Positions 1,179 to 47,207 are shown, numbered from the stretch's first letter. The stretch is DNA of 47,207 nt from an uncultured Gammaproteobacteria bacterium (GCA_964403325.1 CAYOFO010000003.1:1-47207), one strand, 5' to 3'. Made by a program: numbers and translations. Notes: generated from the letters alone by a model not told the origin.

Positions 1179-2324
1179 ATGAATATTGCAATTGATATCC
1201 GTGGTTTAAGTCTGCGGGGTCGGACGGGGGTCGCAGAATATACGCTTGAATTGTTGCGAGCTATTTTTAGCCAGGATACAACCAACACGTATTTTTTGTT
1301 TTATAATGGTCCGGAAAATATGGCTCGGCTTTTTTGTGAACAGTCTCATGTTCATTTGATTTGGACGCGGATTCCCAACAAAATACTCAATTTGTCTCTG
1401 TATCTCACAGGTTATCCGCGCCTTGAAAGTCTTCTTGCTCACAAATTTGGTCAGCGGTTGACAATAGATCTTTGGTTTTCTCCGAATGTAAATTTTTTGG
1501 GTTTAAGGCCTACTACCAAGCAGGTGATAACGATCCACGATATCAGCTTTGTTTTGTTCCCGGAGTTTTTTACCTGGCGTCAAAGAGTTTGGCATTGGTT
1601 GATTGATAGTAAAAAACAGTGCGAGCAAGCCTATAAAATTCTCACCCCTTCCGAAAATACCAAGCGAGATATTGTGAACGTATATAAAATTTCCCCGGAA
1701 AAAATTCACGTGGTGTATCCGGGGGTATCCTATAAAATGCCAACGGCATTAGAAATGTCGCAGGTTCGTAAAGAATATGATCTGCCGGAAAAGTATATTT
1801 TATTTTTGGGAACCTTTGAGCCGCGCAAAAATATTCTTGCAGCTCTTAAAGCATTTGAGCTAGCGTTGCCAAAATTGCCGTCCGATGTGCATTTGGTGCT
1901 GGCAGGGGCCGGCGGCTGGAAAAATAGGGCTGTTTATAACTTAATAAGCACCTCTCTTGCCAAAGACCGGATAAAAGTATTAGGATATGTTGAACCTAAA
2001 GATAAAGATGCGTTGTATCATTTGGCCGATGTGTTCGTTTTTCCATCTTTTTATGAAGGTTTTGGGTTTCCGGTGCTCGAAGCTATGGCCCAAGGAGTTC
2101 CGGTAATTACCTCCAACCGTTCGTCTTTGTCAGAAATAACTGACGGTGCTGCGTACTTGGTAGATCCGAATATCCCAGCAACTCTGGCCCAAGGCATGGT
2201 TGAAATCATCAATGATGAGTTGTTAAGGAAAACTTATGCCGCTAAAGGAAAACAACAGGTAGAAAAGTTTTCTTGGCAAAAAGCAGCCGCCGCATGGTTG
2301 CAAATAATAGAAAATAGCCAATAA
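1179..2324 (+). CDS. glycosyltransferase family 4 (GT-B, group 1)
   Basis: 381 aa ORF with ATG start and AAGGA 8 nt upstream. C-terminal GT4 signature FPSFYEGFGFPVLEAMAQGVPVITS. Confidence 0.9.
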   Translation: MNIAIDIRGLSLRGRTGVAEYTLELLRAIFSQDTTNTYFLFYNGPENMARLFCEQSHVHLIWTRIPNKILNLSLYLTGYPRLESLLAHKFGQRLTIDLWFSPNVNFLGLRPTTKQVITIHDISFVLFPEFFTWRQRVWHWLIDSKKQCEQAYKILTPSENTKRDIVNVYKISPEKIHVVYPGVSYKMPTALEMSQVRKEYDLPEKYILFLGTFEPRKNILAALKAFELALPKLPSDVHLVLAGAGGWKNRAVYNLISTSLAKDRIKVLGYVEPKDKDALYHLADVFVFPSFYEGFGFPVLEAMAQGVPVITSNRSSLSEITDGAAYLVDPNIPATLAQGMVEIINDELLRKTYAAKGKQQVEKFSWQKAAAAWLQIIENSQ

Positions 2325-3734: not shown

Positions 3735-5143
3735 ATGGTTGCACCCTCTTTTTTGATTACAGCGAGCGGGGTTTTGGCAAGAATGATGCAATCGAGCCAC
3801 AAACTCCAGTTTTCTATGTAAAATGTATCCAGTTTTACTTCTTCGTCAAAACTTAAATTGCTGCGTCCGGAAATTTGCGGCAGGCCGGTAATGCCTGGTT
3901 TAATGGCGAGGACAATTTTATGATCTTTGGCATATTGGTCTACTTCGCGCGGCTGATGGGGTCGGGGACCAACCAAACTCATTTCCCCACAGAGGACATT
4001 GTAAAATTGAGGTAGTTCATCAAGGCTAAAAGCGCGTAAAAATCGTCCCACCGGAGTGACGCGCGGATCATTTTTAATTTTGTATACCGGACCGCTTTTG
4101 CTCGAGAGTTTGATAAGCTGCTTTTCTTTTTTGAGGGCGGCGGCTCCACCTGGTTCGTCAGTAGTGCAGTCGGCTTGGTACATGGAACGGAATTTGAGAG
4201 TGGAGAATTTTTTGCCATTTTGTCCGACGCGAGTATTTTTATAAATAATCGGCCGCCCGGTTTCTATAAGAATGGCGAAGGCAGTAACGACAAATAAGGG
4301 AGAAAAGAAAAACATGAGGATAATACTTCCCAAAATATCAATGAGGCGTTTAATGATTCGACCCCAACCTTCGAGGCTGGTGCGACGCAACTCAATAATG
4401 GGGATGCCGGCGAGGGTGGATAGGCTAATATTCGTGGTCAGGGTGGAAAAAAGATCGGCGGAGTATTTAAAAGTTATGTGATGTTCCTTGGTAAAATCTA
4501 TACAGCGTAAGAGTTCATCTTCGTTGGCTTTGGGGTTGGTATAAATCATTTCGTCTATTTTGAGACCAAGAATTTCTTGCCCAACCGGCTTGGTAAATTG
4601 CGGGTAGGTCTGTATGAGCAGATGGCCCAAGTAAAGTTCTTGTCGCAAAACATTGGCCACGGTTTCACTCACTTCTGCGTTGCCAATAATAACCGTGCGT
4701 TTGAGCCCAAAACCAAAGCGATAAAAAATGCGCTTTATGAGCCGTATGGCGATCCGACCAAGAATAATAAAAATCATGGATAAAATCCAACCGGCCAAAA
4801 CCAAAAAACGTGAGTCGAATTTTTGGAGGGTAAAAAAGACGTAGATGGTGATGCCGGCAAACCCGGTGGAACAAGCGGCAATGATGGCGGCAATATCCCG
4901 AGCCAGTTTACGATTGGGATTGGTTGAGTATAGCCCAAATAGTATAAAGACCAGTATCCACGCCGCTCCTACCAGGAGCACCCGCGGCCAGTATTCGGCA
5001 AATGACAAGCCAAAAATTACCGGACGAATAGCGGTTACGGTAGAGGTAAAACGCAGGGAGTAGGCACTGATCGCGGCCAAAAAAAGCAGTAAGTAATCAA
5101 TCGGGAGCTGCAAGAAAGTAAAAAAGAGTTCCAATTTTTTCAT
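3731..5143 (-). CDS. polyprenyl-phosphate sugar phosphotransferase (WbaP/bacterial sugar transferase family)
   Basis: Multiple N-terminal TM segments. C-terminal hallmark SLDELPQFYNVLCGEMSLVGPRP ... KPGITGLPQISGR. Confidence 0.9.
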   Translation of the reverse strand: MKKLELFFTFLQLPIDYLLLFLAAISAYSLRFTSTVTAIRPVIFGLSFAEYWPRVLLVGAAWILVFILFGLYSTNPNRKLARDIAAIIAACSTGFAGITIYVFFTLQKFDSRFLVLAGWILSMIFIILGRIAIRLIKRIFYRFGFGLKRTVIIGNAEVSETVANVLRQELYLGHLLIQTYPQFTKPVGQEILGLKIDEMIYTNPKANEDELLRCIDFTKEHHITFKYSADLFSTLTTNISLSTLAGIPIIELRRTSLEGWGRIIKRLIDILGSIILMFFFSPLFVVTAFAILIETGRPIIYKNTRVGQNGKKFSTLKFRSMYQADCTTDEPGGAAALKKEKQLIKLSSKSGPVYKIKNDPRVTPVGRFLRAFSLDELPQFYNVLCGEMSLVGPRPHQPREVDQYAKDHKIVLAIKPGITGLPQISGRSNLSFDEEVKLDTFYIENWSLWLDCIILAKTPLAVIKKEGATI

Positions 5144-5328
5144 ACGGCTCTATTGTAGAAGAGTTGAGTAGAAGCGTCAACAATAAAATTGATTCATCAT
5201 AATGTTTGCTTTTAAATAATTTCGGAAGAGTTGGTTTTAGTTGTTTTCTTGGCTAAGTTGTATAATTTGTCTTGTAATCTCAAAATTTGGTATACTCTAG
5301 CCTAAAGAAATTATTTTAGACCTAAAAT

Positions 5329-8142
5329 ATGCGTAAAATTGAGCCTAGTTTTTTTAGTAAATCTATGGAAAGTATAGCTCGAACAGCTGCGCTCGTAGGC
5401 GCTTTAGCTGGGCCGGTTGCTATGGAAAGTTCCGCGAGAGCTGATATAGTAATAAGTCCTGGACGCGAAGTTGCGCCGGCAGAAAGAAGCCCTGAAATAG
5501 TGGCTTTGTACGGGGAAAAAACCACAGCGATTGGTAATGCTTATACACATCCGGAGCAGGTGGCCGCTAAACTTAATGAGCTTGTTAAAGCACGGTTTGA
5601 ATATGGTCGTCACCTTATTTTTTTCGCTATTTCCGCTGATCCAGAGCCGTTTTTAACGGAACAAAATCTTGGTTTTTTGAAAAAATTTCTTTATAGGAGT
5701 GATATAAAATTAGGTATAGAACACTATTTTAAAAATAATTTTAAGAGACTTGCCCCAGCAAAAAAACAGCTTAAGGTAGAAAATTTAGCATCATTACTTT
5801 TAGCTGCCGACCCAGAATGGTTGCTGATGGTTGCGGAAAATTTCATTGATTTACCAAGGTATTCTGAATTACTCAAAAAAGCCGCAAAAGTTTTAAAAGA
5901 AACCGATAAAGGCTATAAATTATTTCAGTACGCTCAGGTTTTTAGTAGTCAGTCATTTGCCGGATCTGTACTCAAAGAACAGGTCGGAGGACGCTACGAA
6001 GATGCGATTGAGCATTATCAGAATTACAGGAATATTCCAGAAGCTAAAGAAATTTTGGGAGAAGCGGTGAGATTGGCTGATAAAAATGGAGAAGCTAGCG
6101 TATTACTCCGTTTTGCGGAAAATTTTTTAGATCTGCCTGGCGCTGATGGGATAATCAGAAAAAATGCTAAGAATCAGCCAGCCTTGGCTATTAGTTCTTT
6201 TAAACAATATCAAAGACTAGACTCCGCTAAAGAAATTTTACGTTTAGCCGTCCAGGATTTGTTGAAAGATGAAGAATTTCAGCCTCAAACTCAGGTTCTT
6301 TTTAAAGAAGCATCAACTATTATTTCGGTATTTGGTCCAGAAGAAGCCATGTCATTATTTTTACAGAGTGCTAAATATGGCACGAGCGCAGCAGTTGCGT
6401 ACTATAAAAGTTATGCCTTCATACCAAAGGCCAGGGAAGTCCTAGATTTAGTAATGGAAAAAGATCCTGGTGCGTTTGTTGTGAATTTTTCAAGCTATGC
6501 CACTGTGATGCCAAACGTAGATGCAAGAAGGATTTTAGAAAAAGCAGTTGTAGCCGATCCTGCAGAATTACACAGAGTGGAAGTGTGGAAGGATGTAGGT
6601 GGAACGCTGGAAAAGAGCAGTGACCCAGTTGTTTTGAAGATTTTAGACACAAGAAAAAGATTACAATTGTTGCGTAGAAGTCAGTTTGGTAGTGGGGATG
6701 ATTTTAATGGTGTAGATTTGCTTTTGGCTTTAAATTCTGACCAGCCAGTACAACTAAGGCCAAATAATAAGGATCAAACAAGTTTTTATTTTAGGCAACT
6801 AATCAAAATACAAGATAGGGATAATTTAATTGGTTCTGTTGGAATTAATTATGAAGTTAGTTCTCTGGCTGGGTACATTTCCGAAAAAATTGATGATTCA
6901 CACGAAGATAATGACACCGAAAGATTTTTAGAGGTAAATAACTTTTCTGCTCGAGAGTTGCGTACGGTTATCATTGGTGGCGGCGATGCTCTCTATACTT
7001 CTTCGTTTAATGGTTTGTTTAATCGTTTGTTGAAGCAGTTAAAAAAAGAAAATTTATCCGGAAGTGCACTGTTTCCGTCTGGTCGTCGAGAAGACGAATT
7101 TCGATTTTTTTTCAAACAGTGTGCAACGTATAAACGTTTGGGTGACTTTTTGAGTACTATGAATCAAGCTGACCAGGATCAATTGCTGGAACGTTTTGTT
7201 TCAGGTTTACACGAAGCTAAGGATCCTTTGTTGCAGGCGGCTATCATTGCCGATACTTTTGCCGCCTTGCCTCCGGGTCATTATCATGAAGTCTTGCGAA
7301 TGAAATTAAAACATAATTTTGACACTGTCTCTCAAAAAACAGTTGGTACAAAGTTACTCTATGAGGTTTTGAACGAAATGTTTGCTCGTCAAGATGTCGG
7401 TAGTGATAAGTGGATTAGGGATATCCGTGAAAGGTATCGATTAAGAGATTTTACCAAAATAGGCTCAGAAGAATTTTTTGACTCCAATGGGGTAAATCGT
7501 CAAGTTCATATTTTTTATGATGACGAAGATGGCAAGAGTTCTTTTGCGCATTTTCAAGCAGAATATGCTAAGGATAAAAAATGGAAGATTTCAGACCAGG
7601 GAGCGTATATTGTGATGCAAACAGAAAATGAAAAAGGTCGTAAAATAGAAATATATGCCGGAAAACCAGAAGAAAAAGAAGGTGTTCTAGAAAAAATAAA
7701 TCAGGATATAGTGGCTCAAGGTGGTGGGGTTATACAGGGCGGAGTGCATCACGGTCATAGTTACCATTTTAACACTTCTTTTGAAAACATGCCTCAAAGT
7801 TTGAGATTTTTTTGGATTGGTTCTTGTGGAGGTTTTTATAATACATCTAAGACGGTGGATCATTTTCCGCAGGCTCATTTGGTTGTCACAAAAGGTACAG
7901 GAACTATGTTTATAAATGATCCGGTCCTAAAGCTGTTTAATGATGAAATGCTGGATAAAGGTACAGTGGTGTGGGAATCTTTTTGGCAAAAAATATCTAA
8001 AAGATTTTCTAGAAATAAAGATTTTGATAGGTATGTTCCACCGCATCGAAATTTAGGAGCTCTGTTTTTGCAGGCTTATAAATATGCGGAAAGACAAAAT
8101 GGTAAGCCTGCCGAGGCTAAACAAAAACTCTCTGCTTTGTAG
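5329..8142 (+). CDS. large hypothetical protein with signal-like N-terminus, internal helical repeats and a His/Cys-containing C-terminal domain
   Basis: 937 aa. N-terminus [24 protein letters not shown]. Repeated Y..Y...P.A.EIL..AV..DP units. C-terminus [11 protein letters not shown] ... [11 protein letters not shown]. Confidence 0.75.
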
Positions 8143-12427: not shown

Positions 12428-14884
12428 ATGCCTTCTCCCGAATCACGTTTTCATCAGCCTCCGGAAGCAGAAGCCGGGGAACTCTCGAGCAGAGAACGGC
12501 AGATATTAGTTTATTACCAAGAACTTATAGTATTTCGTGAGGTAATAACAGCGCTTGTCCAAGGACAGATGAGGCCAGCTTATAGAGCCGCTTTACACCA
12601 TGACGAAAGTCTAACAGAACGACAAAGAAATGCTCAGGCACAGGTTTTTGTGCAGGAAATTAATGAAAAAATACGATCCATACAGCAAATAATAATTCGA
12701 TTAAAGGAACACCAAGACTTTATTAGTGTAACAAATAAAATATTGGGAGGATCGGTATCTGGGTATATTGAAGATTGGGTAGTTTTGGCGCAAAATATGC
12801 TGGAGCCTTGGTATATAGCTTTTAGAAATTTTCGCCAACGCTTGCGTAGTGAGGTGGTAGAGAGTGAGCAGCCTATGATGACTGATGAAATGCTCGATAT
12901 CGAGGCAGCCGCGTATATAACGGGTATGGACGTGCCTTGTACTTTATTTGCTCCTGAAATGTCATCTGAAGCAAAAGAGGTTATTCTTAAAGATTATAAT
13001 AAACGAAGGTTGCTGTGGAATACAACGATTAATAAGCTTGCGCTTTTACTTGGTTCTGAGGAAAAAACAGTTGTTGCTTATTTGCGTGATCGCGGCGGTA
13101 TTCGTCGAGCGCGTAATATTTTGGTGAGGTATCAAAATGTTTATGAGATGACGGGTGAAAACAGTATTCCGTTGCCTGACCGGGCAGCTTTTAGAGAAAT
13201 TGGTTTTATCCCGCATTTACCAGTTATTTCTCCGGAAACAGCTCCAAATTATTTGCAGGCGGTCGCCGATATTGTACAAAAAGCTGTGGTTTTAAGTAAG
13301 GAAGTTGGTGATTTTCTTGTTGCTGCAGAAACGCCCGAACAGGCAACAGAGCGTTTGGGGCCAACATTTTTGTTTTCTTTGCAATCAGGACATGCAATAT
13401 ATGCCAATTGGCATGCAGATGCCATCAAAGCTGGTGTCAGTCAAGAAAAAATAAATGTGTTATTAAAGACAGAAAAAGCGCAAGAAGTTCAGTTGCAATG
13501 GTTGTTAAAAATTATTAATGGTGAGTCTGGTCTATATCTTCCATTCGACCAGTGTATCAAGCGTTGGCAGGAAGTGGAAGTAGATTTGGAAGTTATCCTT
13601 AAAAGTGGTCATCCGAAAATTCGAGAAAAGGTGAGAGTGCAAGTTTTAAAGTATTTATTGGACCAGCCGTTCGAACATTTAGTTTATGGACCATCTTCTT
13701 TTGTGCAAAAAGTTGAGTTTTGGAAAGGGTATGGAATAGATGTAAGTGATACAATTCTTTCTCCGGAAATACGTAATCGAATTGAGTGGTTTTTGGTGCG
13801 GCTTAAAATGAGATCGTGGCGTCGGAACGAGTATGCTGATTGCTTTGACGTTTGGGTGAAAGCGGGTTGGCAACCGACGGAACATATGTTGGTCAAAGAA
13901 TCCCTATTATTAGACGAGGAAGAACGAGAACAAGATAAGCAGCTTCATCAAAATATGCAATATTTTCGTTCTATTCAAACTAAAACTAAGGCCGGTAGGG
14001 ATCTTTCCAGGGAGGATGTGGTTTTTTTACACGGTATTCCTGTTTTTGGCGGTCGGGCTGACTTGGTGTGGCGACATGCTGATGGTTCAGGTAGTCCGGA
14101 CTATATTTTACAACAAATCAAAGAATTTTGTGCTAAGCGTAGCATAAAAGAAATGCAACGAGACGCGGCTGTTTTTTATGAGTGTTCCGTAAAGGAAGTA
14201 GCTATCGATAGAAAGACGATAAATAAAAAAACTAAAGTATATGTAGGTGAGCTATTTGATGGTTTTTTTGACAAACTCTCTCATGTCCAACATATGTATA
14301 CGTCTTTTCCTTATGCCAAAGTAGTGCGTGATACAGTCGTACTTAACACACCTGTTACTCAAATTGAAGCAGAGTTCGCGCGCCTGGGTGTACGCCTGTC
14401 TCCTTATGCGGCAAAATCGTTAGAATTGCTCAAAAAAGATGATGCTTCTGTGCAATTGGTGGGTCAGGAATTTACAGTAGTGTCTGTGCGGGCGAGTGAT
14501 TTCTTACCGGCTGATCAAAAAAACATGCCAGCGGTTCCAAACAATCAATTGCCTGCTTGGGCTAAACGTTTTGGGCTAGAGCCGTGTCCGCCTTTGGTTG
14601 GTTTGCAATATTTTGTAGGCCTATTCAAAGTACCTGGGCATCCACTGATGAAAAATTATCTGAATTTATTTGCGGATCCATCGATGAAAAATAGTTTTCA
14701 TATTGTAAATGAAAAAACAAGTTTTCACTCTGAAGAAGGGAGTGTTTATTTTGATGGAGTTTATCTTAATGAGCATAAGGTACCAAAAGATGGTGCGTGG
14801 ACACGCGATGCTCAGTTGGTATTTTTAATGCCAGCAAATTCGGAAAAAAAGCAGAAAAAATGGCAATTTTGGCGATCGGCTTAA
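12428..14884 (+). CDS. paralog 3: same C-terminal module, J domain replaced by an unrelated ~330 aa N-terminal region
   Basis: 818 aa. Shares [90 protein letters not shown] with paralogs 1 and 2. Starts 5 nt after the paralog 2 stop. Confidence 0.85.
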   Translation: MPSPESRFHQPPEAEAGELSSRERQILVYYQELIVFREVITALVQGQMRPAYRAALHHDESLTERQRNAQAQVFVQEINEKIRSIQQIIIRLKEHQDFISVTNKILGGSVSGYIEDWVVLAQNMLEPWYIAFRNFRQRLRSEVVESEQPMMTDEMLDIEAAAYITGMDVPCTLFAPEMSSEAKEVILKDYNKRRLLWNTTINKLALLLGSEEKTVVAYLRDRGGIRRARNILVRYQNVYEMTGENSIPLPDRAAFREIGFIPHLPVISPETAPNYLQAVADIVQKAVVLSKEVGDFLVAAETPEQATERLGPTFLFSLQSGHAIYANWHADAIKAGVSQEKINVLLKTEKAQEVQLQWLLKIINGESGLYLPFDQCIKRWQEVEVDLEVILKSGHPKIREKVRVQVLKYLLDQPFEHLVYGPSSFVQKVEFWKGYGIDVSDTILSPEIRNRIEWFLVRLKMRSWRRNEYADCFDVWVKAGWQPTEHMLVKESLLLDEEEREQDKQLHQNMQYFRSIQTKTKAGRDLSREDVVFLHGIPVFGGRADLVWRHADGSGSPDYILQQIKEFCAKRSIKEMQRDAAVFYECSVKEVAIDRKTINKKTKVYVGELFDGFFDKLSHVQHMYTSFPYAKVVRDTVVLNTPVTQIEAEFARLGVRLSPYAAKSLELLKKDDASVQLVGQEFTVVSVRASDFLPADQKNMPAVPNNQLPAWAKRFGLEPCPPLVGLQYFVGLFKVPGHPLMKNYLNLFADPSMKNSFHIVNEKTSFHSEEGSVYFDGVYLNEHKVPKDGAWTRDAQLVFLMPANSEKKQKKWQFWRSA

Positions 14885-34960: not shown

Positions 34961-35779
34961 TTATTTGATAATTTTTAATACGTTTATTGATCTTTTTTCG
35001 TGAGTGTCTGTGCTAGTGTGTATGTTAGTTCCAAAAAATCCTAAATTTTTTAACTGTTCTTCTATATTTTGAACTGAAAGATCTGAAAACATTTCCGGTA
35101 TCTCCGAAAAAAGCATACCTCCCGAAGCCAATAAATCATAGGCATTTTTTAGCATCTGCACAAAAACTGTTTTGTGTGAGTCTTTGGAGTATCTTGAAAC
35201 AGTTGTGTTTCTTTCTTCGAAAGCACCTTTTGGTCTGCAAACAATCAAATTAAAACTCATTATTTGCCTGCGACCCATGCATTCGCGTAGTTTTTTCCAA
35301 GATTTTCCGTCGTAAATATTAGCTTCAACCACTTCTCTTTTTTTATCTTCATTTAAAGAAGTGTAGTACCGTTCTTTTTTCACTAGCTTTTGCCTCTTTA
35401 AGGGATCTTGCTCTTTTGTAATAACTCTCTTAACTTGAGTTAACAGCCAGTTATCCATATCAACCAACCTAAACCCAACAACATTATCTGTTGAGCTGGT
35501 ATCTTTAATAAAATATCCTCCTCCAAATAAATCGAGAACATTTGTTGGTTTGCCCTGTTCTTTTTCTTGTTTTATTAGAGTTTCAAAAGTTTGGTTTCCA
35601 AGAAATGGAGCAAAAGTTTTTTCGTATGGATGAGTGTCATCAGAATCGTGTATTCCATCTACCCCCCAAAGATCCCCTAATTCTCTGTCGTCTCGTATAG
35701 AGAGATCTGCATCAAAGCAAAGAAGTTTTCTGATATTTACTGCATCCCTCTGATTAGGGCGTAAACTTTCTGAGGCCAT
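34961..35779 (-). CDS. hypothetical protein, possible class I SAM-dependent methyltransferase fold
   Basis: VLDLFGGGYF (motif I-like), VVGFRLVD, FNLIVCRP, LLASGGMLF. The assignment is pattern-based only. Confidence 0.55.
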   Translation of the reverse strand: MASESLRPNQRDAVNIRKLLCFDADLSIRDDRELGDLWGVDGIHDSDDTHPYEKTFAPFLGNQTFETLIKQEKEQGKPTNVLDLFGGGYFIKDTSSTDNVVGFRLVDMDNWLLTQVKRVITKEQDPLKRQKLVKKERYYTSLNEDKKREVVEANIYDGKSWKKLRECMGRRQIMSFNLIVCRPKGAFEERNTTVSRYSKDSHKTVFVQMLKNAYDLLASGGMLFSEIPEMFSDLSVQNIEEQLKNLGFFGTNIHTSTDTHEKRSINVLKIIK

Positions 35780-42165: not shown

Positions 42166-42183
42166 AGTTTATATTAAAAAATG

Positions 42184-42255
42184 CTCCGGGGGCTGGGATC
42201 GAACCAGCGAAATCCACGTTAACAGCGTGGCGTTGTACCACTCAACTACCCCGGA
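42184..42255 (-). tRNA. tRNA-Asn (anticodon GTT)
   Basis: UCCGGGG-UA-GUUG-AGUGGUA-CAAC-G-CCACG-CUGUUAA-CGUGG-AUUUC-GCUGG-UUCGAUC-CCAGC-CCCCGGA-G. 72 nt, all four stems Watson-Crick, no encoded CCA. Confidence 0.93.
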
Positions 42256-42397: not shown

Positions 42398-42432
42398 TAA
42401 AAATTATATATTCAAACAAATTCGAACCTAAC

Positions 42433-42461
42433 TTGACGCATCGTATTACTAAGTGTATGAT
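42433..42461 (+). promoter_or_regulatory. promoter of lexA (divergent from the tRNA promoter)
   Basis: TTGACG (42433-42438), 17 nt spacer, TATGAT (42456-42461). Confidence 0.6.
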
Positions 42462-42484
42462 ATGTGTATGTATATATTTCCTTT

Positions 42485-43105
42485 ATGAAATTGACTCCAA
42501 AAGAATCTGAGGCGCTGATAAAAATTCGTAATTTTTCTCTACAGCATGGGCACACCCCCTCAGTAAGAGACCTAATGAAAGAAATGAGTCATGCCTCACC
42601 ACGTTCATCCGCTTTTCTTATTGATAGGCTGGTTGAAAAAGGTTTTTTGGCAAAAAAAGAAGCTGGAAATATTAAAATTTTGAATAACGCACAAAGCAAT
42701 AAAGATGATTCTAAAACAGTGGCAGTTCCTTTAATAGGTTCCGTAAGCTGTGGAACTCCGATTTTGGCCGAAGAAAATGTAGAGGCTATGATTTCTGTAT
42801 CTACCGCACTTATTAATCCCGGAGCGAAATATTTTTTACTCAAAGCCAATGGCGACTCCATGAATGAAGCCGGAATTAATAGTGGCGATTTACTCCTAAT
42901 CCGACAACAATTCACTGCGAATAATGGTGATAGGGTAGTAGCGCTTATTGATGATGAGGCAACTGTCAAAGAATTTCATAAAACATCCGAGGCTGTTGTA
43001 TTAAAACCAAAATCAACTAACAAAAAACATAAACCAATTATATTAACTAACAATTTTCAAATTCAAGGTATTGTTAAAAAAGTAATACCTAATTTTGGAT
43101 TATAA
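42485..43105 (+). CDS. lexA: LexA-type repressor (wHTH + S24 peptidase)
   Basis: N-terminal wHTH ALIKIRNFSLQHGHTPSVRDLMKEM. Cleavage-site region VPLIGSVSCGTPILAEEN. Catalytic NGDSMNEAGI and ATVKEF. Confidence 0.88.
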   Translation: MKLTPKESEALIKIRNFSLQHGHTPSVRDLMKEMSHASPRSSAFLIDRLVEKGFLAKKEAGNIKILNNAQSNKDDSKTVAVPLIGSVSCGTPILAEENVEAMISVSTALINPGAKYFLLKANGDSMNEAGINSGDLLLIRQQFTANNGDRVVALIDDEATVKEFHKTSEAVVLKPKSTNKKHKPIILTNNFQIQGIVKKVIPNFGL

Positions 43106-43376: not shown

Positions 43377-44645
43377 ATGGACGGTGAAAACCCAAATGGA
43401 TATGAGGATTTAAAAAATAATCTTGAAAAGATAAAATCGGAGTATAATCAGGCTAAAAAAATACTCGACAATATCAAGGATTTTTCTGATGATTTTGAAA
43501 GGTTAAAAATCCAACTAAGAGACGAGAATGACGGGGTAAATACAAATTTTAATATCTTAAAATTAAGGAGAGACGAAATCAATAACATTAAGGAGTTGTC
43601 GCAAAATACTTTAAATGAAATTGGTAATAATCTCGAAAAAGTTAAGACAAATATCGAAAGCATGCAAGCTGCCTATAATGTATTTTCCGAAATAAAGGGA
43701 AAAATTACGGGCAGAAATGATGAAATTGATGGATTGTTAAATACAACTAAGAGTTTAAAGGATGATGTTGAGAGAATAAAAACAGAAGCACAACAAACTT
43801 TAGAGAATATTAAAAATACCTTTGCAGCTGTAGAGCAAAAAATCCAAGAGATACAAAACGCCTACAACGAGTTTTTACAAATCAAAGGAAAAATTGACGA
43901 CGAAAACACCGGCCTTAAAGCAGTCTTTAGTATAGTTCAAGATTTGCAGCAAAAATCTCAGAGCCTTTTTAAAGAGATACAGTCCTTCAGAGATCAGGCA
44001 AAGGATTTATTGTCAGATATTAACAAAAACAAGGATGAAACGGACAAAATAAAAAATATTATTTCTGAAAACCTCAAAGTTGCCCAAGATAGCAGAGAAG
44101 AAATAAGTAATATCGCTGACCTAATTACTGATACTGGGTTTGCCAATGCTTTTCAGAAAAGATCTAAGGCTCTTTTCTGGGGATATATTATTTGGGGCAT
44201 AGTTTTTCTTGTTGCAGTTATTGTTCTAGCAATTTTTCTTTATAGTCTTTTCAAGAATATAAATGGCGATATTCCTGAGCTAAGAGTCGTGATCTACAGA
44301 CTATCTCTCACTTCACCCTTGTTATTCTTGATAGGCTTTTCTATGAGGCAATATGCTAAAGAAAGGGACCTGCATGAGAAGTATGTCTTTAAAGCCACAA
44401 CTGCTACCGTTATCCGTAATCATATAAAGTTTCTTGTAGAAACTTCTGGCTCCTACAAAAATTTTTCGGAATTTATTTTAACTGTTTTTTCTACACTTTA
44501 TAAAGTTCCTTACGAAGAAACAGAAGGTAAAGATGGCAGACCTGAATCGGATGAGATAAAACTTTCTTTAACTAAGGAACTTAAAACACTTATTACGGAT
44601 GATTCTATTTTTGAGAGAGTCCTTAGTATTATTTTCAGAAAATGA
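43377..44645 (+). CDS. coiled-coil protein with C-terminal 2-TM module
   Basis: About 260 aa of heptad-like repeats, including two ~60-aa units (MQAAYNVFSEIKGKITGRNDEIDG / IQNAYNEFLQIKGKIDDENTG). Then TM1 LFWGYIIWGIVFLVAVIVLAIFLYSLF and TM2 VVIYRLSLTSPLLFLIGFSM, then RQYAKERDLHEKY. Confidence 0.75.
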   Translation: MDGENPNGYEDLKNNLEKIKSEYNQAKKILDNIKDFSDDFERLKIQLRDENDGVNTNFNILKLRRDEINNIKELSQNTLNEIGNNLEKVKTNIESMQAAYNVFSEIKGKITGRNDEIDGLLNTTKSLKDDVERIKTEAQQTLENIKNTFAAVEQKIQEIQNAYNEFLQIKGKIDDENTGLKAVFSIVQDLQQKSQSLFKEIQSFRDQAKDLLSDINKNKDETDKIKNIISENLKVAQDSREEISNIADLITDTGFANAFQKRSKALFWGYIIWGIVFLVAVIVLAIFLYSLFKNINGDIPELRVVIYRLSLTSPLLFLIGFSMRQYAKERDLHEKYVFKATTATVIRNHIKFLVETSGSYKNFSEFILTVFSTLYKVPYEETEGKDGRPESDEIKLSLTKELKTLITDDSIFERVLSIIFRK

Positions 44646-44736
44646 AACATGGTAGTATTCTGTAGGAGTGATTAAACAAGGTTAACAAAAGTTAACTATT
44701 CTAAAAATTAATATAACGATTATTTGCGTATGTTCA

Positions 44737-44964
44737 TTGAACATAATAAACGAACTTAACGAAGAAAGAGGGTTTAACCATTCTAACGTTGAAAAGCAGC
44801 ATTTATTTCTGATAAATCAGCATGAAGATTTAAAGACTAAAAAAGGTAGTGTAGAACTATATTATAAGCTAAAGGGTAAATTAGTAGATAGACAAGAACA
44901 TACAGTACATAACGTAGCAAGTATTTTAGACGAAATTGAAGCTGAAAAAATAAGGAATCATTAA
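44737..44964 (+). CDS. small hypothetical protein (75 aa, TTG start)
   Basis: A 75-codon open frame in ~30-35% GC DNA is unlikely by chance. TTG is the only canonical start. Confidence 0.4.
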   Translation: MNIINELNEERGFNHSNVEKQHLFLINQHEDLKTKKGSVELYYKLKGKLVDRQEHTVHNVASILDEIEAEKIRNH

Positions 44965-44991
44965 TCTCACTAAGAAATTAAAATATTTTTT

Positions 44992-45918
44992 ATGGAACAT
45001 ACGGACTGTCTAATTTGTGGTTACCCGAATATTGAATTTTTCAATTCAAGTGAAAACTATAGAATAAATTGTGGTCGTTGCGGAGACTATTTTGTTACCG
45101 ACACGTTATACAGAACATTCGCAGATGTAGATATTAAAGAAGAACTAGTAAAGAAAGGTTATATAACTTCTGCTGTTATCAGAGAATTAAACGAGACAAA
45201 ACAAGAGATTCCTCGATTAAATACTAAAAATTACAGAACGCTTTGGGAACATTATTTAGTGCCGGATTTGGAAAACGTTGAGACAAAGGTAAAAAAACTG
45301 CTTCAACGGATAAAAGAAAGATCTGCATATTATGGGTCTCATGTTAGTATTTTGCATGACAAGGACTATCCTCTAGGTTATGCTCAAAATCCTCAAGAGT
45401 TCTCTGCACAAGTTAAACTTTTGGAAGATTCTAATCTGCTAAAAATAAGAGCGTGCGATACAGCCAAGTTTATTGTAGAACTTTCCGCACGTGGTTGGGG
45501 ATTGGCCAAAGATTCGAGTACCAAAAATAGCAATCAAGTATTTGTTGCAGTTTGGTTTGATCCTTCAACAGAAGGAACCATAAATACTATTTGCACTTCA
45601 ATTAAAGAATGTGGGTATGAAGCGATGTGTATAAAAAATGAGCATTTTTCAGAAAAAATAATGGATAAGGCAATTGGAGAAATAAAACAAAGTAAATTTA
45701 TGATAGCTGACTTAACGGGTAATAGGACAAGTGTATTTTTTGAAATTGGTTTAGCGTATGGTTTAGGGATAGAAATAATTTATCTCTTTAAGAAAGATGA
45801 GGTAAAAGAAAAAACGCCTTTAGATTTTTATGTTAAACATTATCAGTGTTATAGTTATAAAAATGCTACTGATATACCGGAAATCCTCAAAAACGCTATA
45901 AATGCTCGCATAAAATAA
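44992..45918 (+). CDS. Zn-ribbon + wHTH-like + C-terminal nucleoside 2-deoxyribosyltransferase-like / TIR-like Rossmannoid domain protein
   Basis: CLICGYPN...CGRCGDY. Middle region KFIVELSARGWGLA. C-terminal VFVAVWFDPS ... SKFMIADLTGNRTSVFFEIGLAYGLGIEIIYLFKK. Confidence 0.7.
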   Translation: MEHTDCLICGYPNIEFFNSSENYRINCGRCGDYFVTDTLYRTFADVDIKEELVKKGYITSAVIRELNETKQEIPRLNTKNYRTLWEHYLVPDLENVETKVKKLLQRIKERSAYYGSHVSILHDKDYPLGYAQNPQEFSAQVKLLEDSNLLKIRACDTAKFIVELSARGWGLAKDSSTKNSNQVFVAVWFDPSTEGTINTICTSIKECGYEAMCIKNEHFSEKIMDKAIGEIKQSKFMIADLTGNRTSVFFEIGLAYGLGIEIIYLFKKDEVKEKTPLDFYVKHYQCYSYKNATDIPEILKNAINARIK

Positions 45919-45928
45919 TTCATTTACC

Positions 45929-46471
45929 ATGATTAATTGCATTTACAATTTTTTTAACAACGCCACCGTTGGAGCTCTAGTCGCAGTAGTTGTTGCTGGT
46001 GCCGTCGGTTCTTGGCAATATCGAAAACAGAAAGATATTGATCGTGCCCAAGAAACAAAAAAGGATATTATTGGCGACCTTATTCTGCTTAACGAAAAAG
46101 CAAGTTACGTTTTATTAATAATTGATAGGATTGCTAATAGTTATTCAAGAACGGATAAATCTGGGTCTGGTTTTTTACAGTCAATTTTAGAGCATGAAAT
46201 TCCTCGGTTATCAGACGCAATAAATGAAGATATACCTTACGTAGATAAAAAAATAGAAGCTAAGCTTAGAATCTATTTCAAGGGTAATTCAAAAATAGAT
46301 AGTGCTTACGAATCTCTTAAAAAAGAGCTAAAGAATTGGCATTCTCCACTTACGACTCAGGACTTGTCACTTGTCAACCGTGTTGATAAACAGCCCAAGC
46401 TTAGTATAGAGAGACTAAATAATGAAATTAAGACGATGATAGATCTAGTTTGGCAAACTGACAAAGGGTAA
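45929..46471 (+). CDS. single-pass membrane hypothetical protein (180 aa)
   Basis: N-terminal TM VGALVAVVVAGAVGSW. Starts 10 nt after the upstream stop. Confidence 0.65.
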   Translation: MINCIYNFFNNATVGALVAVVVAGAVGSWQYRKQKDIDRAQETKKDIIGDLILLNEKASYVLLIIDRIANSYSRTDKSGSGFLQSILEHEIPRLSDAINEDIPYVDKKIEAKLRIYFKGNSKIDSAYESLKKELKNWHSPLTTQDLSLVNRVDKQPKLSIERLNNEIKTMIDLVWQTDKG

Positions 46472-46480
46472 TTTTCAATT

Positions 46481-47071
46481 ATGATTTATCTAATCGGAGT
46501 TAACCATACTGTCCAGTATGTAGCGGATCTTCACGAAAAACCAGAGTATAAAGAAATAAAAATAAAAATTCAAGAATTTAAAAATCATATACTAACCGAA
46601 GCGAAGCGATTAAACATATCTTTAATCGCTGAAGAAATGTCGCTGGCAGCTCTAAGAGCCTATGGTGCCAGAGACTCGGTAGCTAGAAGTGTAGCTACTA
46701 AGCTAAAAATAGAGCACAGATTCTGCGATCCAGATAGAGAACAAAGAAAGAGCTTGGGTCTGACAATAGATATGTATGACAGAGATATAATTGCAAGCAG
46801 ACTGGGAATTAGGAGAGATGTAGCAGAATGGACACCAGAGGATGTGGCTAGAGTAGGAGAAGAAAAGAAAAAAAGCTTTCACATTCGTGAAAAATTCTGG
46901 TTAGAAAGAATTATTGAAAAAATTGATCAATCAATTATATTTATTTGTGGCGAAGAACACACTTCCAGTTTTACAACAATATTAGGTGGTAACAATATTT
47001 CTTCAAGCATTATCAGTACTGGGTGGGGGAAGGAAGAGGTAGGCAAGCTCGAAAAAGAAGGGTGGATATAA
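46481..47071 (+). CDS. hypothetical protein, possible TraB/GumN/Tiki-superfamily fold
   Basis: Ordered motifs LIGVNHTVQ (GxxH), SLIAEE, FCDPD, IREKFWLERI, IFICGEEH. Starts 9 nt after the upstream stop. Confidence 0.6.
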   Translation: MIYLIGVNHTVQYVADLHEKPEYKEIKIKIQEFKNHILTEAKRLNISLIAEEMSLAALRAYGARDSVARSVATKLKIEHRFCDPDREQRKSLGLTIDMYDRDIIASRLGIRRDVAEWTPEDVARVGEEKKKSFHIREKFWLERIIEKIDQSIIFICGEEHTSSFTTILGGNNISSSIISTGWGKEEVGKLEKEGWI

Positions 47072-47170
47072 GCAAGTTACTTTGAATTAGAGTATGAATA
47101 CCCTCTGCCTTTCCATATCGGTAATGGCTCAGTTATGCTAAACTCTACACATTGAGCGTTGTAAAAACTA

Positions 47171-47207
47171 TTAACGTGGATTTCGCTGGTTCGATCCCAG
47201 CCCCCGG
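47171..47207 (+). repeat. 3' half of tRNA-Asn, truncated by the window edge, inverted relative to the intact gene
   Basis: ttaacgtggatttcgctggttcgatcccagcccccgg is identical to tRNA positions 34-70 (plus-strand 42222-42186). Identity starts inside the anticodon. Upstream sequence has no matching 5' half (no CCACG, D-arm or acceptor strand). Confidence 0.85.

Follow-up and report, generated by a model that had tools for sequence, protein, structure and literature searches.

A putative low-GC islet beside tRNA-Asn with a LexA-linked coiled-coil membrane protein and a stand-alone nucleotide-glycosidase-like protein

In the 47,207-nucleotide (nt) stretch of an uncultured Gammaproteobacteria bacterium considered here (GCA_964403325.1, CAYOFO010000003.1:1-47207; hereafter "the window", with positions counted from its first letter), lexA and a DUF2188 gene are followed at 43377-47071 by genes for a coiled-coil protein with two transmembrane (TM) segments (CC2TM), a Zn-ribbon protein with a domain resembling nucleoside 2-deoxyribosyltransferases (NDT) and TIR domains (ZnNDT), a single-pass membrane protein (TM180) and a small TraB/Tiki-like protein (p196). 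A preliminary description, made from the sequence alone, saw in these genes the architecture of a phage-defence or conflict system or, alternatively, in the membrane protein downstream of lexA an analogue of SOS-induced division inhibitors. This raises the question of whether the genes act together as one system and, if not, which roles the individual proteins may have.

On balance, we consider it probable that the 4.9-kb block from lexA to p196, which is low in G+C (GC), is a horizontally acquired islet of independent modules and not one system. Its low GC content, its bracketing by tRNA-Asn sequence and the scattering of ZnNDT across phyla are the basis for regarding it as acquired. Of its components, the LexA-linked CC2TM attracts the most interest, with the stand-alone ZnNDT next. 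The features of the block, with lengths in amino acids (aa) and strands in brackets, are the following:

42183-42255 (-), tRNA-Asn (GTT), found by ARAGORN and scoring 66.5 bits with Rfam tRNA, at the left edge of the low-GC block
42410-42461 (+), putative lexA promoter with upstream repeat; TTGACG-17-TATGAT at 42433-42461
42464-43105 (+), lexA, likely start ATG 42485; 153.8 bits with TIGR00498
43095-43361 (+), DUF2188 gene, likely start ATG 43119; PF09954, 2.5e-17
43377-44645 (+), CC2TM, 422 aa; coiled coil and TM hairpin
44646-44991 (+), intergenic region with orf75 at 44737-44964 (75 aa, TTG start)
44992-45918 (+), ZnNDT, 308 aa; Zn-ribbon, helical/winged-helix middle and NDT/TIR-like domain
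45929-46471 (+), TM180, 180 aa; single N-terminal TM segment
46481-47071 (+), p196, 196 aa; alpha/beta protein of a single domain, carrying GxxH twice plus EE and RExxW
47168-47207 (+), 3' half of tRNA-Asn repeated as an inverted 40-nt copy that closes block and window on the right

Co-occurrence of the genes and boundaries of the block

All described open reading frames (ORFs) are present on the plus strand at these coordinates, and their order, common strand and spacings of 13-15 and 9-10 nt can be read off the sequence as the preliminary description had claimed. The gaps amount to 13 nt between lexA and the DUF2188 gene (counted from ATG 43119), 15 nt between the latter and CC2TM, 91 nt between CC2TM and orf75, 27 nt between orf75 and ZnNDT, 10 nt between ZnNDT and TM180, and 9 nt between TM180 and p196; in the 346-nt interval between CC2TM and ZnNDT, orf75 is the sole ORF. 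Tight packing in the window is, in itself, no evidence of a system.

The seven window proteins were compared by tblastn (E <= 1) with 50 fetched related loci, which are numbered L0xx below. Relatives of ZnNDT were found at 13 loci, those of CC2TM at about 20 and those of p196 at five, with no two families sharing a locus. Accordingly, the 13 ZnNDT loci hold no relative of TM180, p196, CC2TM or DUF2188, the five p196 contexts hold no ZnNDT relative, and all-against-all clustering of the ZnNDT neighbours within 5 kb yielded no shared family except ZnNDT itself. With zero co-occurrences over the 13 ZnNDT loci and the five p196 contexts, the trio of ZnNDT, TM180 and p196 is not a conserved system, the lack of co-occurrence in other genomes being an outcome that the preliminary description had itself counted against the proposal. 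Furthermore, ZnNDT and p196 are not obligate partners, since 1,587 p196 clusters face about 25 of ZnNDT.

As the preliminary description had anticipated, no named defence system was recognised: PADLOC matched none with any of the seven proteins, and the candidacy of such a system was rejected on a partial TIR-effector hit, the profile PDC-S16 and coiled-coil noise. Neither a reverse transcriptase with a non-coding RNA nor ThsA, a CD-NTase/cyclase or an Argonaute was detected in any ORF at 42.4-47.2 kb, nor did any of them occur as a conserved partner at the 13 ZnNDT loci. The defence or conflict flavour noted earlier draws support from the neighbours of the relatives, which include restriction-modification genes, a type III restriction endonuclease, PDC-S06, a Dsr1-like protein and DUF3800. 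A larger defence island towards the left was considered and rejected, PADLOC being blank for ten ORFs at 28-42 kb.

The compositional and tRNA-related claims of the preliminary description held up. The region 43377-47071 has a GC content of 33.1% as compared with 41.1% for positions 1-42000; outside the block, the minimum for any 3.7-kb window is 37.3%, and lexA is also low at 35.2%. On the left, the block adjoins tRNA-Asn and, on the right, an inverted fragment of the same gene. The arms of this inverted repeat (42186-42225 and 47168-47207; 4942 nt between them) agree at 39 of 40 positions (98% complementary), with an exact 33-nt match inside the right-hand copy, which runs into the window end, and they bracket exactly the low-GC block from lexA to p196. 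Since the bases upstream of the right-hand copy are unable to form an anticodon stem, it represents a tRNA fragment rather than another complete tRNA; by virtue of this copy, the whole block is bracketed by tRNA-Asn sequence. The arms are inverted, whereas simple tRNA-targeted integration would be expected to leave a direct repeat, and the block contains no integrase. The fragment could be an attachment-site (att) remnant after inversion, the border of an invertible segment or an assembly break.

CC2TM and its association with LexA and restriction-modification

The LexA protein of the window exceeds the TIGR00498 equivalog cutoff over its full length (153.8 against 110.95 bits) and comprises the domains LexA_DNA_bind (PF01726, 2.5e-6) at the N-terminus and Peptidase_S24 (PF00717, 1.5e-28) at the C-terminus. 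ATG 42485 is likely its true start, as suggested by the alignment to the hidden Markov model (HMM) together with the promoter-like site at 42433-42461. Its translation keeps the S24 dyad of Ser (GDSM) and Lys (VKEF), with Cys-Gly at the scissile position, and it thus looks cleavage-competent by sequence. In Escherichia coli LexA the scissile bond is Ala-Gly, and Cys-Gly is the form found in UmuD. TTGACG-17-TATGAT is the top promoter-like site on the plus strand (10/12). It is preceded by a direct repeat, ATTCAAAC-AA-ATTCGAAC, at 42410-42427, which occurs only once and is a possible candidate for a LexA operator, albeit one without statistical support. These candidates did not define a LexA operator, there being no Gram-positive-type box at the promoter, no enrichment of the repeat and only a single copy of the palindrome at 44730 (see below). 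Elsewhere in the window, two near-identical Cheo-type LexA-box-like sites, GAACATATGTTG and GAACATTTGTTG, are located at 13880-13891 and 35536-35547.

The lexA, DUF2188 and CC2TM genes, in this order, are packed behind the best promoter-like site and, given gaps of only 13 and 15 nt, are taken to constitute one operon. The DUF2188 protein matches, besides PF09954, the PADLOC candidate PDC-S16 (8.7e-16) and phrog_3220 (2.7e-8); none of the loci searched by tblastn has a DUF2188 relative beside CC2TM.

In CC2TM, an N-terminal coiled coil of ~255 aa is followed by a TM hairpin and then by a C-terminal region that is conserved. The two TM segments of the preliminary description were recovered in a hydropathy scan, at about residues 263-297 and 304-322. 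In a collection of 5.8 billion proteins, its homologues form at least 75 clusters of 430-450 aa with 35-52% identity, and all family members with a named organism are from Patescibacteria. Going solely by the taxonomy of the closest relatives, the source of the window may likewise be a patescibacterium. Conservation is strongest in the motif TDTGFANxFQKR before the TM hairpin and extends across and beyond the hairpin (YRLTLTSPLLFLIGF..QYxKERDLxEKYxFKA..RNH). The coiled coil also contains an internal repeat, MQAAYNVFSEIKGKIT and IQNAYNEFLQIKGKID, spaced ~63 residues apart (window 43650-43900, residues about 95-175), both copies of which are conserved in the family. From Pfam, NCBIfam and PADLOC, CC2TM drew coiled-coil noise only (for PADLOC, LmuB, JetC and ZorA).

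The neighbourhoods of CC2TM relatives were compared at about 20 of the fetched loci, where the family resolves into ~12 lineages at 65% identity (distance tree). At five loci (L024, L028, L031, L032 and L034), a 208-aa LexA is encoded divergently, ~60 nt upstream of CC2TM, with a DNA methyltransferase gene behind it; the two that were scanned (L032, L034) score about 148-149 bits with TIGR00498. At others, LexA continues in frame into a methyltransferase of the N4/N6 (L021, L041), Dam (L026) or Eco57I/PglX type (L036-39), often with a small GIY-YIG gene between the fusion and CC2TM. Together with a Dcm fusion at a ZnNDT locus, full-length LexA above the TIGR00498 cutoff is found joined to four methyltransferase classes, namely N4/N6 (PF01555), Dam (D12), Eco57I/PglX-like and Dcm. 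Coordinates of such fusions are L021:3634-5244(-), L026:3993-5546(-), L036:2788-5292(-), L041:2954-4315(-) and L004:6034-7566(-), and several of them adjoin a C-protein-like helix-turn-helix gene and a restriction endonuclease gene (BglII, HNH, Bsp6I). In the literature searched, we met no description of natural LexA-methyltransferase fusions, which is not proof of novelty.

A different arrangement is seen at L040, where a 783-aa fusion of a Schlafen-group-3/DUF2075-type helicase with a C-terminal LexA-type S24 domain (3868-6219, plus strand; Cys-Gly site; PADLOC hits AbiO and Nhi) lies ~900 bp downstream of CC2TM; of all fetched loci, this one carries the nearest relative of the window LexA, namely the S24 part of the fusion (38% identity). 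Restriction-modification systems are the other recurrent neighbours. CC2TM is flanked by hsdS and hsdR in the type I systems of L046 and L043, with PemK, Fic or DUF3800 insertions, is adjacent to an EcoO109I system in L019 and L020, and is near an EcoRI methylase and GmrSD in L044. Resolvases and a Rep gene surround it in L022, and L045 is a contig of proteobacterial type. In total, four of the ~12 lineages are linked to LexA or an S24 domain (the large subclade, L041, L040 and the window), and six of 12 to restriction-modification or a methyltransferase. The CC2TM-LexA link is not random, since a single-copy gene in a ~1-Mb genome would, by rough inference, fall within 3 kb by chance in well under 1% of cases.

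Where LexA and CC2TM share an intergenic region, this region contains TTGACT-N17-TATACT, overlapping the LexA start codon, followed by a direct repeat with an 11-nt period. The repeat unit is ACCTAAA twice, which among the fetched loci is unique to this region; in L041 it is CTAGAA twice and in L021 TAGAA twice. Such a periodic repeat fits a candidate operator but is not proof of one. The earlier idea of a membrane protein tied to lexA receives real support from the CC2TM relatives that directly adjoin full-length LexA in several independent lineages; the likeness to known division inhibitors did not extend to any shared domain.

CC2TM inserted into restriction-modification operons is reminiscent of accessory genes of the PrrC type. 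The PrrC anticodon nuclease of the prr locus is a latent abortive-infection gene inside a type I restriction-modification operon, and CC2TM occupies the corresponding kind of position between hsdS and hsdR in L046 and L043. In contrast to PrrC, CC2TM is a membrane coiled coil without a nuclease or ATPase domain, and the window holds no restriction-modification system.

ZnNDT and the genes packed behind it

ZnNDT combines an N-terminal Zn-ribbon (C5/C8...C27/C30) with a C-terminal domain of about residues 180-308 containing D240 and E251. Its 24 relatives in the collection of 5.8 billion proteins mostly share this architecture at 40-49% identity; three are shorter and one is distant at 25%. In the alignment of the 25 sequences, both Cys pairs are conserved and the C-terminal block is conserved very strongly, with W188, F189, D240, T242, R245, S247, E251 and G253 invariant. 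The motifs singled out in the preliminary description (CxxC...CxxC, VFVAVWFD and FMIADLTGNRTSVFFEIGLAYGLG) are thus present on invariant or nearly invariant columns. D240, T242, R245, S247 and E251 align with the corresponding motif of DNPH1, AEVTQPSLGVGYELG.

The AlphaFold2 (AF2) model of ZnNDT (pLDDT 88.2) shows a flavodoxin-like Rossmannoid fold with the putative nucleophile Glu after the fourth strand. Foldseek searches of the PDB with the C-terminal domain retrieved an NDT (8qc0), BcmB, MilB and DNPH1, with 4jen and 4ohr among the entries (E 3e-5 to 1e-3; TM-score to the target 0.6-0.8 for NDT, DNPH1, MilB and BcmB), and, ranking below these, TIR NADases (SPARTA, SARM1 and bacterial TIR; E about 3e-4 to 2e-3); the viral structures of BFVD gave the same fold matches. 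The NDT/TIR-like fold predicted earlier is borne out by these comparisons and by the invariant Glu and, as judged from the model, the assignment is correct at the superfamily level. Among profiles, phrog_16139 matched at 6.4e-27 and the PADLOC TIR-effector profile PDLC00733 partially, at 3.2e-7 over ~90 residues; no Pfam TIR family matched.

Similarity to known effectors is evident in two directions. The NDT-like N-glycosidase effector of Retron-Eco1 hydrolyses NAD(P)+ (PMC12673091). The C-terminal domain of ZnNDT has the same Rossmannoid fold as this effector and as NDT, DNPH1, MilB and BcmB, and its acidic residue and nucleophile Glu are spaced as in these proteins. ZnNDT differs from type II-A Retron-Eco1 in that no reverse transcriptase and no msr/msd RNA are found near it, and from the retron and NDT enzymes alike in having its own Zn-ribbon and winged helix, in being a single gene and in its sub-threshold PF05014 score. 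With the TIR NADase effectors (Thoeris ThsB, CBASS/Pycsar, SPARTA TIR-APAZ) it shares the PADLOC TIR profile match and the Foldseek TIR matches; unlike them, it lacks a Pfam TIR domain and, at the 13 loci, is without ThsA, CD-NTase, Argonaute or cyclase, and its motif is closer to that of NDT and DNPH1.

Relatives of ZnNDT are spread over Paceibacterota, Saccharibacteria, Gammaproteobacteria, Dehalococcoidia and delta-proteobacterial metagenome-assembled genomes. Some lie in clear defence contexts, with a type III restriction endonuclease (1e-303, L013), a PDC-S06 protein (2e-69) together with uvrB (L011), a protein similar to the C-terminal part of Dsr1 (2.5e-17, L009) and, in L004, the LexA-Dcm fusion, Bsp6I and DUF3800. 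At L011 (5894-7993 and 7995-8915), the ZnNDT relative begins 1 nt past the stop codon of the classic SOS gene uvrB and two genes upstream of the PDC-S06 ATPase; including the window, this is the second ZnNDT just downstream of a gene of the DNA-damage response. A distant NDT-like domain is present in a 259-aa hypothetical protein of Streptococcus prophage 315.2 (L047, 3099-3878), whose gene is located in the lysogeny module between a cro-like gene and the repressor/integrase, codirectional with the repressor, a position typical of prophage-encoded exclusion genes. A phage origin was considered and rejected: no relative of ZnNDT or CC2TM was found in IMG/VR, the hits in Streptococcus prophages are to distant NDT domains only, and the PHROG matches of CC2TM are noise.

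The p196 family is far larger. A word-indexed search found nine relatives, and a full profile search reached 1,587 representative clusters with E <= 1e-3, among which 270 have E <= 1e-30; the members are ~170 aa long. Across 42 diverse members, E51, W140, F154 and H160 are invariant and G6, H9, Q12, E52, D83, P84, R136, E137 and G157 are at least 90% conserved, so that the motifs GVNH, AEE, REKFW and GEEH quoted earlier fall on invariant or near-invariant columns. Active enzymes of the TIKI superfamily have a 2His/2Glu arrangement on a parallel sheet, and HopBA1 (5T09) is a member (PMC6254334). The AF2 model of p196 (pLDDT 92.6) has a parallel-sheet alpha/beta core, to which two strand-plus-GxxH motifs and two Glu contribute a corresponding 2His/2Glu set, and the only sensible Foldseek match is HopBA1 (5t09; E 0.12, probability 0.80, TM-score 0.43). 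p196 hence resembles TIKI, TraB, PrgY, Ere and ChaN in its pair of beta-strand-plus-GxxH motifs, its conserved Glu, its core and its HopBA1 match; it differs from them in its much smaller size (about 170 aa), in matching no Pfam or NCBIfam family of the clan and in the high Foldseek E value. Neither p196 nor 41 of its 42 relatives hit Pfam or NCBIfam, one relative hitting DUF5694 at 0.0012, and assignment by sequence was abandoned after PDB profile searches gave nothing significant even with the 42-member profile. A TIKI-like hydrolase is accordingly plausible and unproven, the earlier TraB/Tiki-like reading having gained the motif set and a weak structural similarity but no HMM confirmation. 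The relatives of p196 stand alone in five unrelated contexts, some next to trehalose synthase or dnaX.

TM180 has a single N-terminal TM segment by hydropathy scan, as had been described. It gave no significant hit in the family libraries and none by tblastn in the fetched loci, no database-wide search having been run; the same holds for orf75. As neither matched anything searched, their status as genes rests on ORF length and tight spacing. At L030, a DUF4760 protein (1370-1840, plus strand; PF15956, 1e-6) is encoded directly after CC2TM and shares with TM180 a 13-residue motif behind the TM segment (FRQQKEIDSAQ as compared with YRKQKDIDRAQ in TM180); an assignment of TM180 to DUF4760 was rejected, this motif being the only likeness and a Pfam hit being absent, and is kept as a lead only. 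Upstream of the trio, a perfect 7-1-7 palindrome, ATGTTCATTGAACAT (44730-44744), overlaps the TTG start of orf75, and GTTAAC-AAAA-GTTAAC is found at about 44681-44696, just upstream of orf75; each occurs once in the window. Both may be regulatory sites for a ZnNDT-TM180-p196 transcript. A structured RNA or retron non-coding RNA in the gap at 44.6-45.0 kb was rejected (fold z = -1.0, no Rfam match).

A probable islet of independent modules and its rivals

In the reading that we prefer, an islet bounded by tRNA-Asn and the inverted tRNA-Asn fragment would have been acquired horizontally and would carry three modules. The lexA promoter would drive lexA, the DUF2188 gene and CC2TM, and CC2TM is most likely repressed by LexA, since the latter looks cleavage-competent and the three genes are predicted to share this promoter. 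DNA damage, e.g., upon phage attack or self-restriction, would stimulate LexA self-cleavage via RecA and switch on CC2TM, which would insert in the membrane by its TM hairpin, leaving the long coiled coil and the conserved C-terminal region on the cytoplasmic side, and may, as an effector, arrest growth or perturb the membrane. The association of CC2TM with LexA and with restriction-modification is displayed by the loci themselves, while this regulation and this effect are proposed on top of it. ZnNDT would constitute the second module, a stand-alone sensor-effector whose Zn-ribbon and winged helix may sense a nucleic-acid or protein cue. In accordance with its modelled fold and predicted catalytic Glu, the NDT-like domain may cleave the N-glycosidic bond of NAD(P)+ or of a nucleotide, as the Retron-Eco1 effector does. 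TM180 and p196 would be passengers, co-transcribed with ZnNDT owing to local packing only.

Three other explanations have been weighed. A genuine multi-gene defence system of ZnNDT, TM180 and p196, with or without CC2TM, in which the NDT/TIR-like enzyme generates or degrades a nucleotide signal, with effector or regulator roles for the membrane protein and the TIKI-like hydrolase, would be in keeping with genes on a single strand 9-10 nt apart, with their low GC and with the confirmed NDT/TIR-like fold, and TM proteins, unrelated in sequence, also follow the ZnNDT relatives in L010 and L011. It is very improbable, being largely refuted by the lack of TM180 and p196 relatives at the 13 ZnNDT loci and of ZnNDT at p196 loci, to which the disparity in family size and the absence of a PADLOC system may be added. 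Ordinary accessory metabolism or housekeeping, with ZnNDT as a regulated enzyme of nucleoside or nucleotide salvage, p196 as a small esterase or peptidase, CC2TM as a structural membrane protein, and low GC and tRNA as incidental features, is a doubtful alternative. NDT, DNPH1 and MilB, the top structural hits, are metabolic enzymes, p196 relatives adjoin trehalose synthase and dnaX, salvage would be useful to nucleotide-auxotrophic Patescibacteria, and pheS and pheT flank a ZnNDT relative in three contigs (L001-L003). Yet a Zn-ribbon and winged-helix N-terminus is no feature of salvage NDTs, the distribution is patchy and crosses phyla, and defence genes recur beside the relatives of ZnNDT and CC2TM, along with the PADLOC TIR-effector and PDC hits.

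An SOS-induced cell-division inhibitor without a defence role, analogous to YneA, ChiZ, DivS or SulA, is likewise unlikely for CC2TM, albeit the strongest of these competitors. The genes yneA, chiZ and divS sit beside lexA in Gram-positive bacteria (Bacillus, Mycobacterium and Corynebacterium, respectively). CC2TM, also a membrane protein, has a similar position, inside the lexA operon in the window and ~60 nt from a divergent lexA in other genomes, an adjacency seen in several lineages. Its membrane anchor and its long coiled coil, predicted to be cytoplasmic, recall EzrA, although hits to EzrA are at noise level (E about 1e-3). On the other hand, the profile libraries revealed no homology and no domain, including the LysM type, shared with YneA, ChiZ, DivS or SulA, and CC2TM, with 420-450 aa and its long coiled coil, is four times larger than proteins of the YneA or SulA type. 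It is also sporadic (about 75 clusters in 5.8 billion proteins), occurs in variable or mobile contexts and is embedded in type I restriction-modification operons without LexA. The LexA beside it is probably not the housekeeping LexA, because it is often fused to a methyltransferase. Given the sporadic spread, the positions in restriction-modification operons and the mobile contexts, an accessory, defence-like role is favoured over that of a housekeeping division inhibitor.

Several observations weigh against the islet of independent modules as we have drawn it. At the lexA promoter, the direct repeat sits 5' of the -35 element, its relaxed form is not enriched, and the Gram-positive-type box GAAC-N4-GTTC is absent. 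The TM and C-terminal region of CC2TM is unmatched in Pfam, NCBIfam and PADLOC, which makes its activity a guess, and its whole-protein PHROG matches are weak and to coiled-coil tail proteins. Eight of the CC2TM loci linked to LexA fall into a single subclade (>=65% identity), so that independent support for the LexA link comes from four lineages and not from 11, and L027, L035 and L045 have neither LexA nor restriction-modification near CC2TM. For ZnNDT, PF05014 scores 25.2 bits (2e-5; profile positions 45-99 of 117), below the gathering threshold of 28.8, and the pheS-pheT position is a housekeeping context. Finally, gaps of 9-10 nt suggest that ZnNDT, TM180 and p196 are co-transcribed here, and these genes may have evolved a functional link locally.

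Within the islet reading, a more specific proposal is put forward tentatively, as a possibility that we hold with clearly less confidence than the islet itself. LexA, free or fused to interchangeable methyltransferases, and the divergently or co-transcribed CC2TM would form a hitherto undescribed membrane effector module of Patescibacteria that is triggered by DNA damage, in which LexA cleavage couples phage- or self-restriction damage to a membrane response, and ZnNDT would be a new, self-sensing single-gene defence acting as an NAD(P)+ or nucleotide glycosidase. Patescibacteria (candidate phyla radiation, CPR), with their tiny genomes, are hardly ever cultured, and their immune and stress responses are known from sequence only. 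If true, a CC2TM wired to LexA and restriction-modification, together with LexA fused to four methyltransferase classes, would provide a testable entry to the interplay of DNA damage, methylation and cell fate in these organisms. ZnNDT would add a compact sensor-plus-glycosidase architecture to the defence effectors that deplete NAD+ or nucleotides, and the p196 family, whose 1,587 clusters match neither Pfam nor NCBIfam, has the look of a minimal TIKI-superfamily member and merits a family definition.

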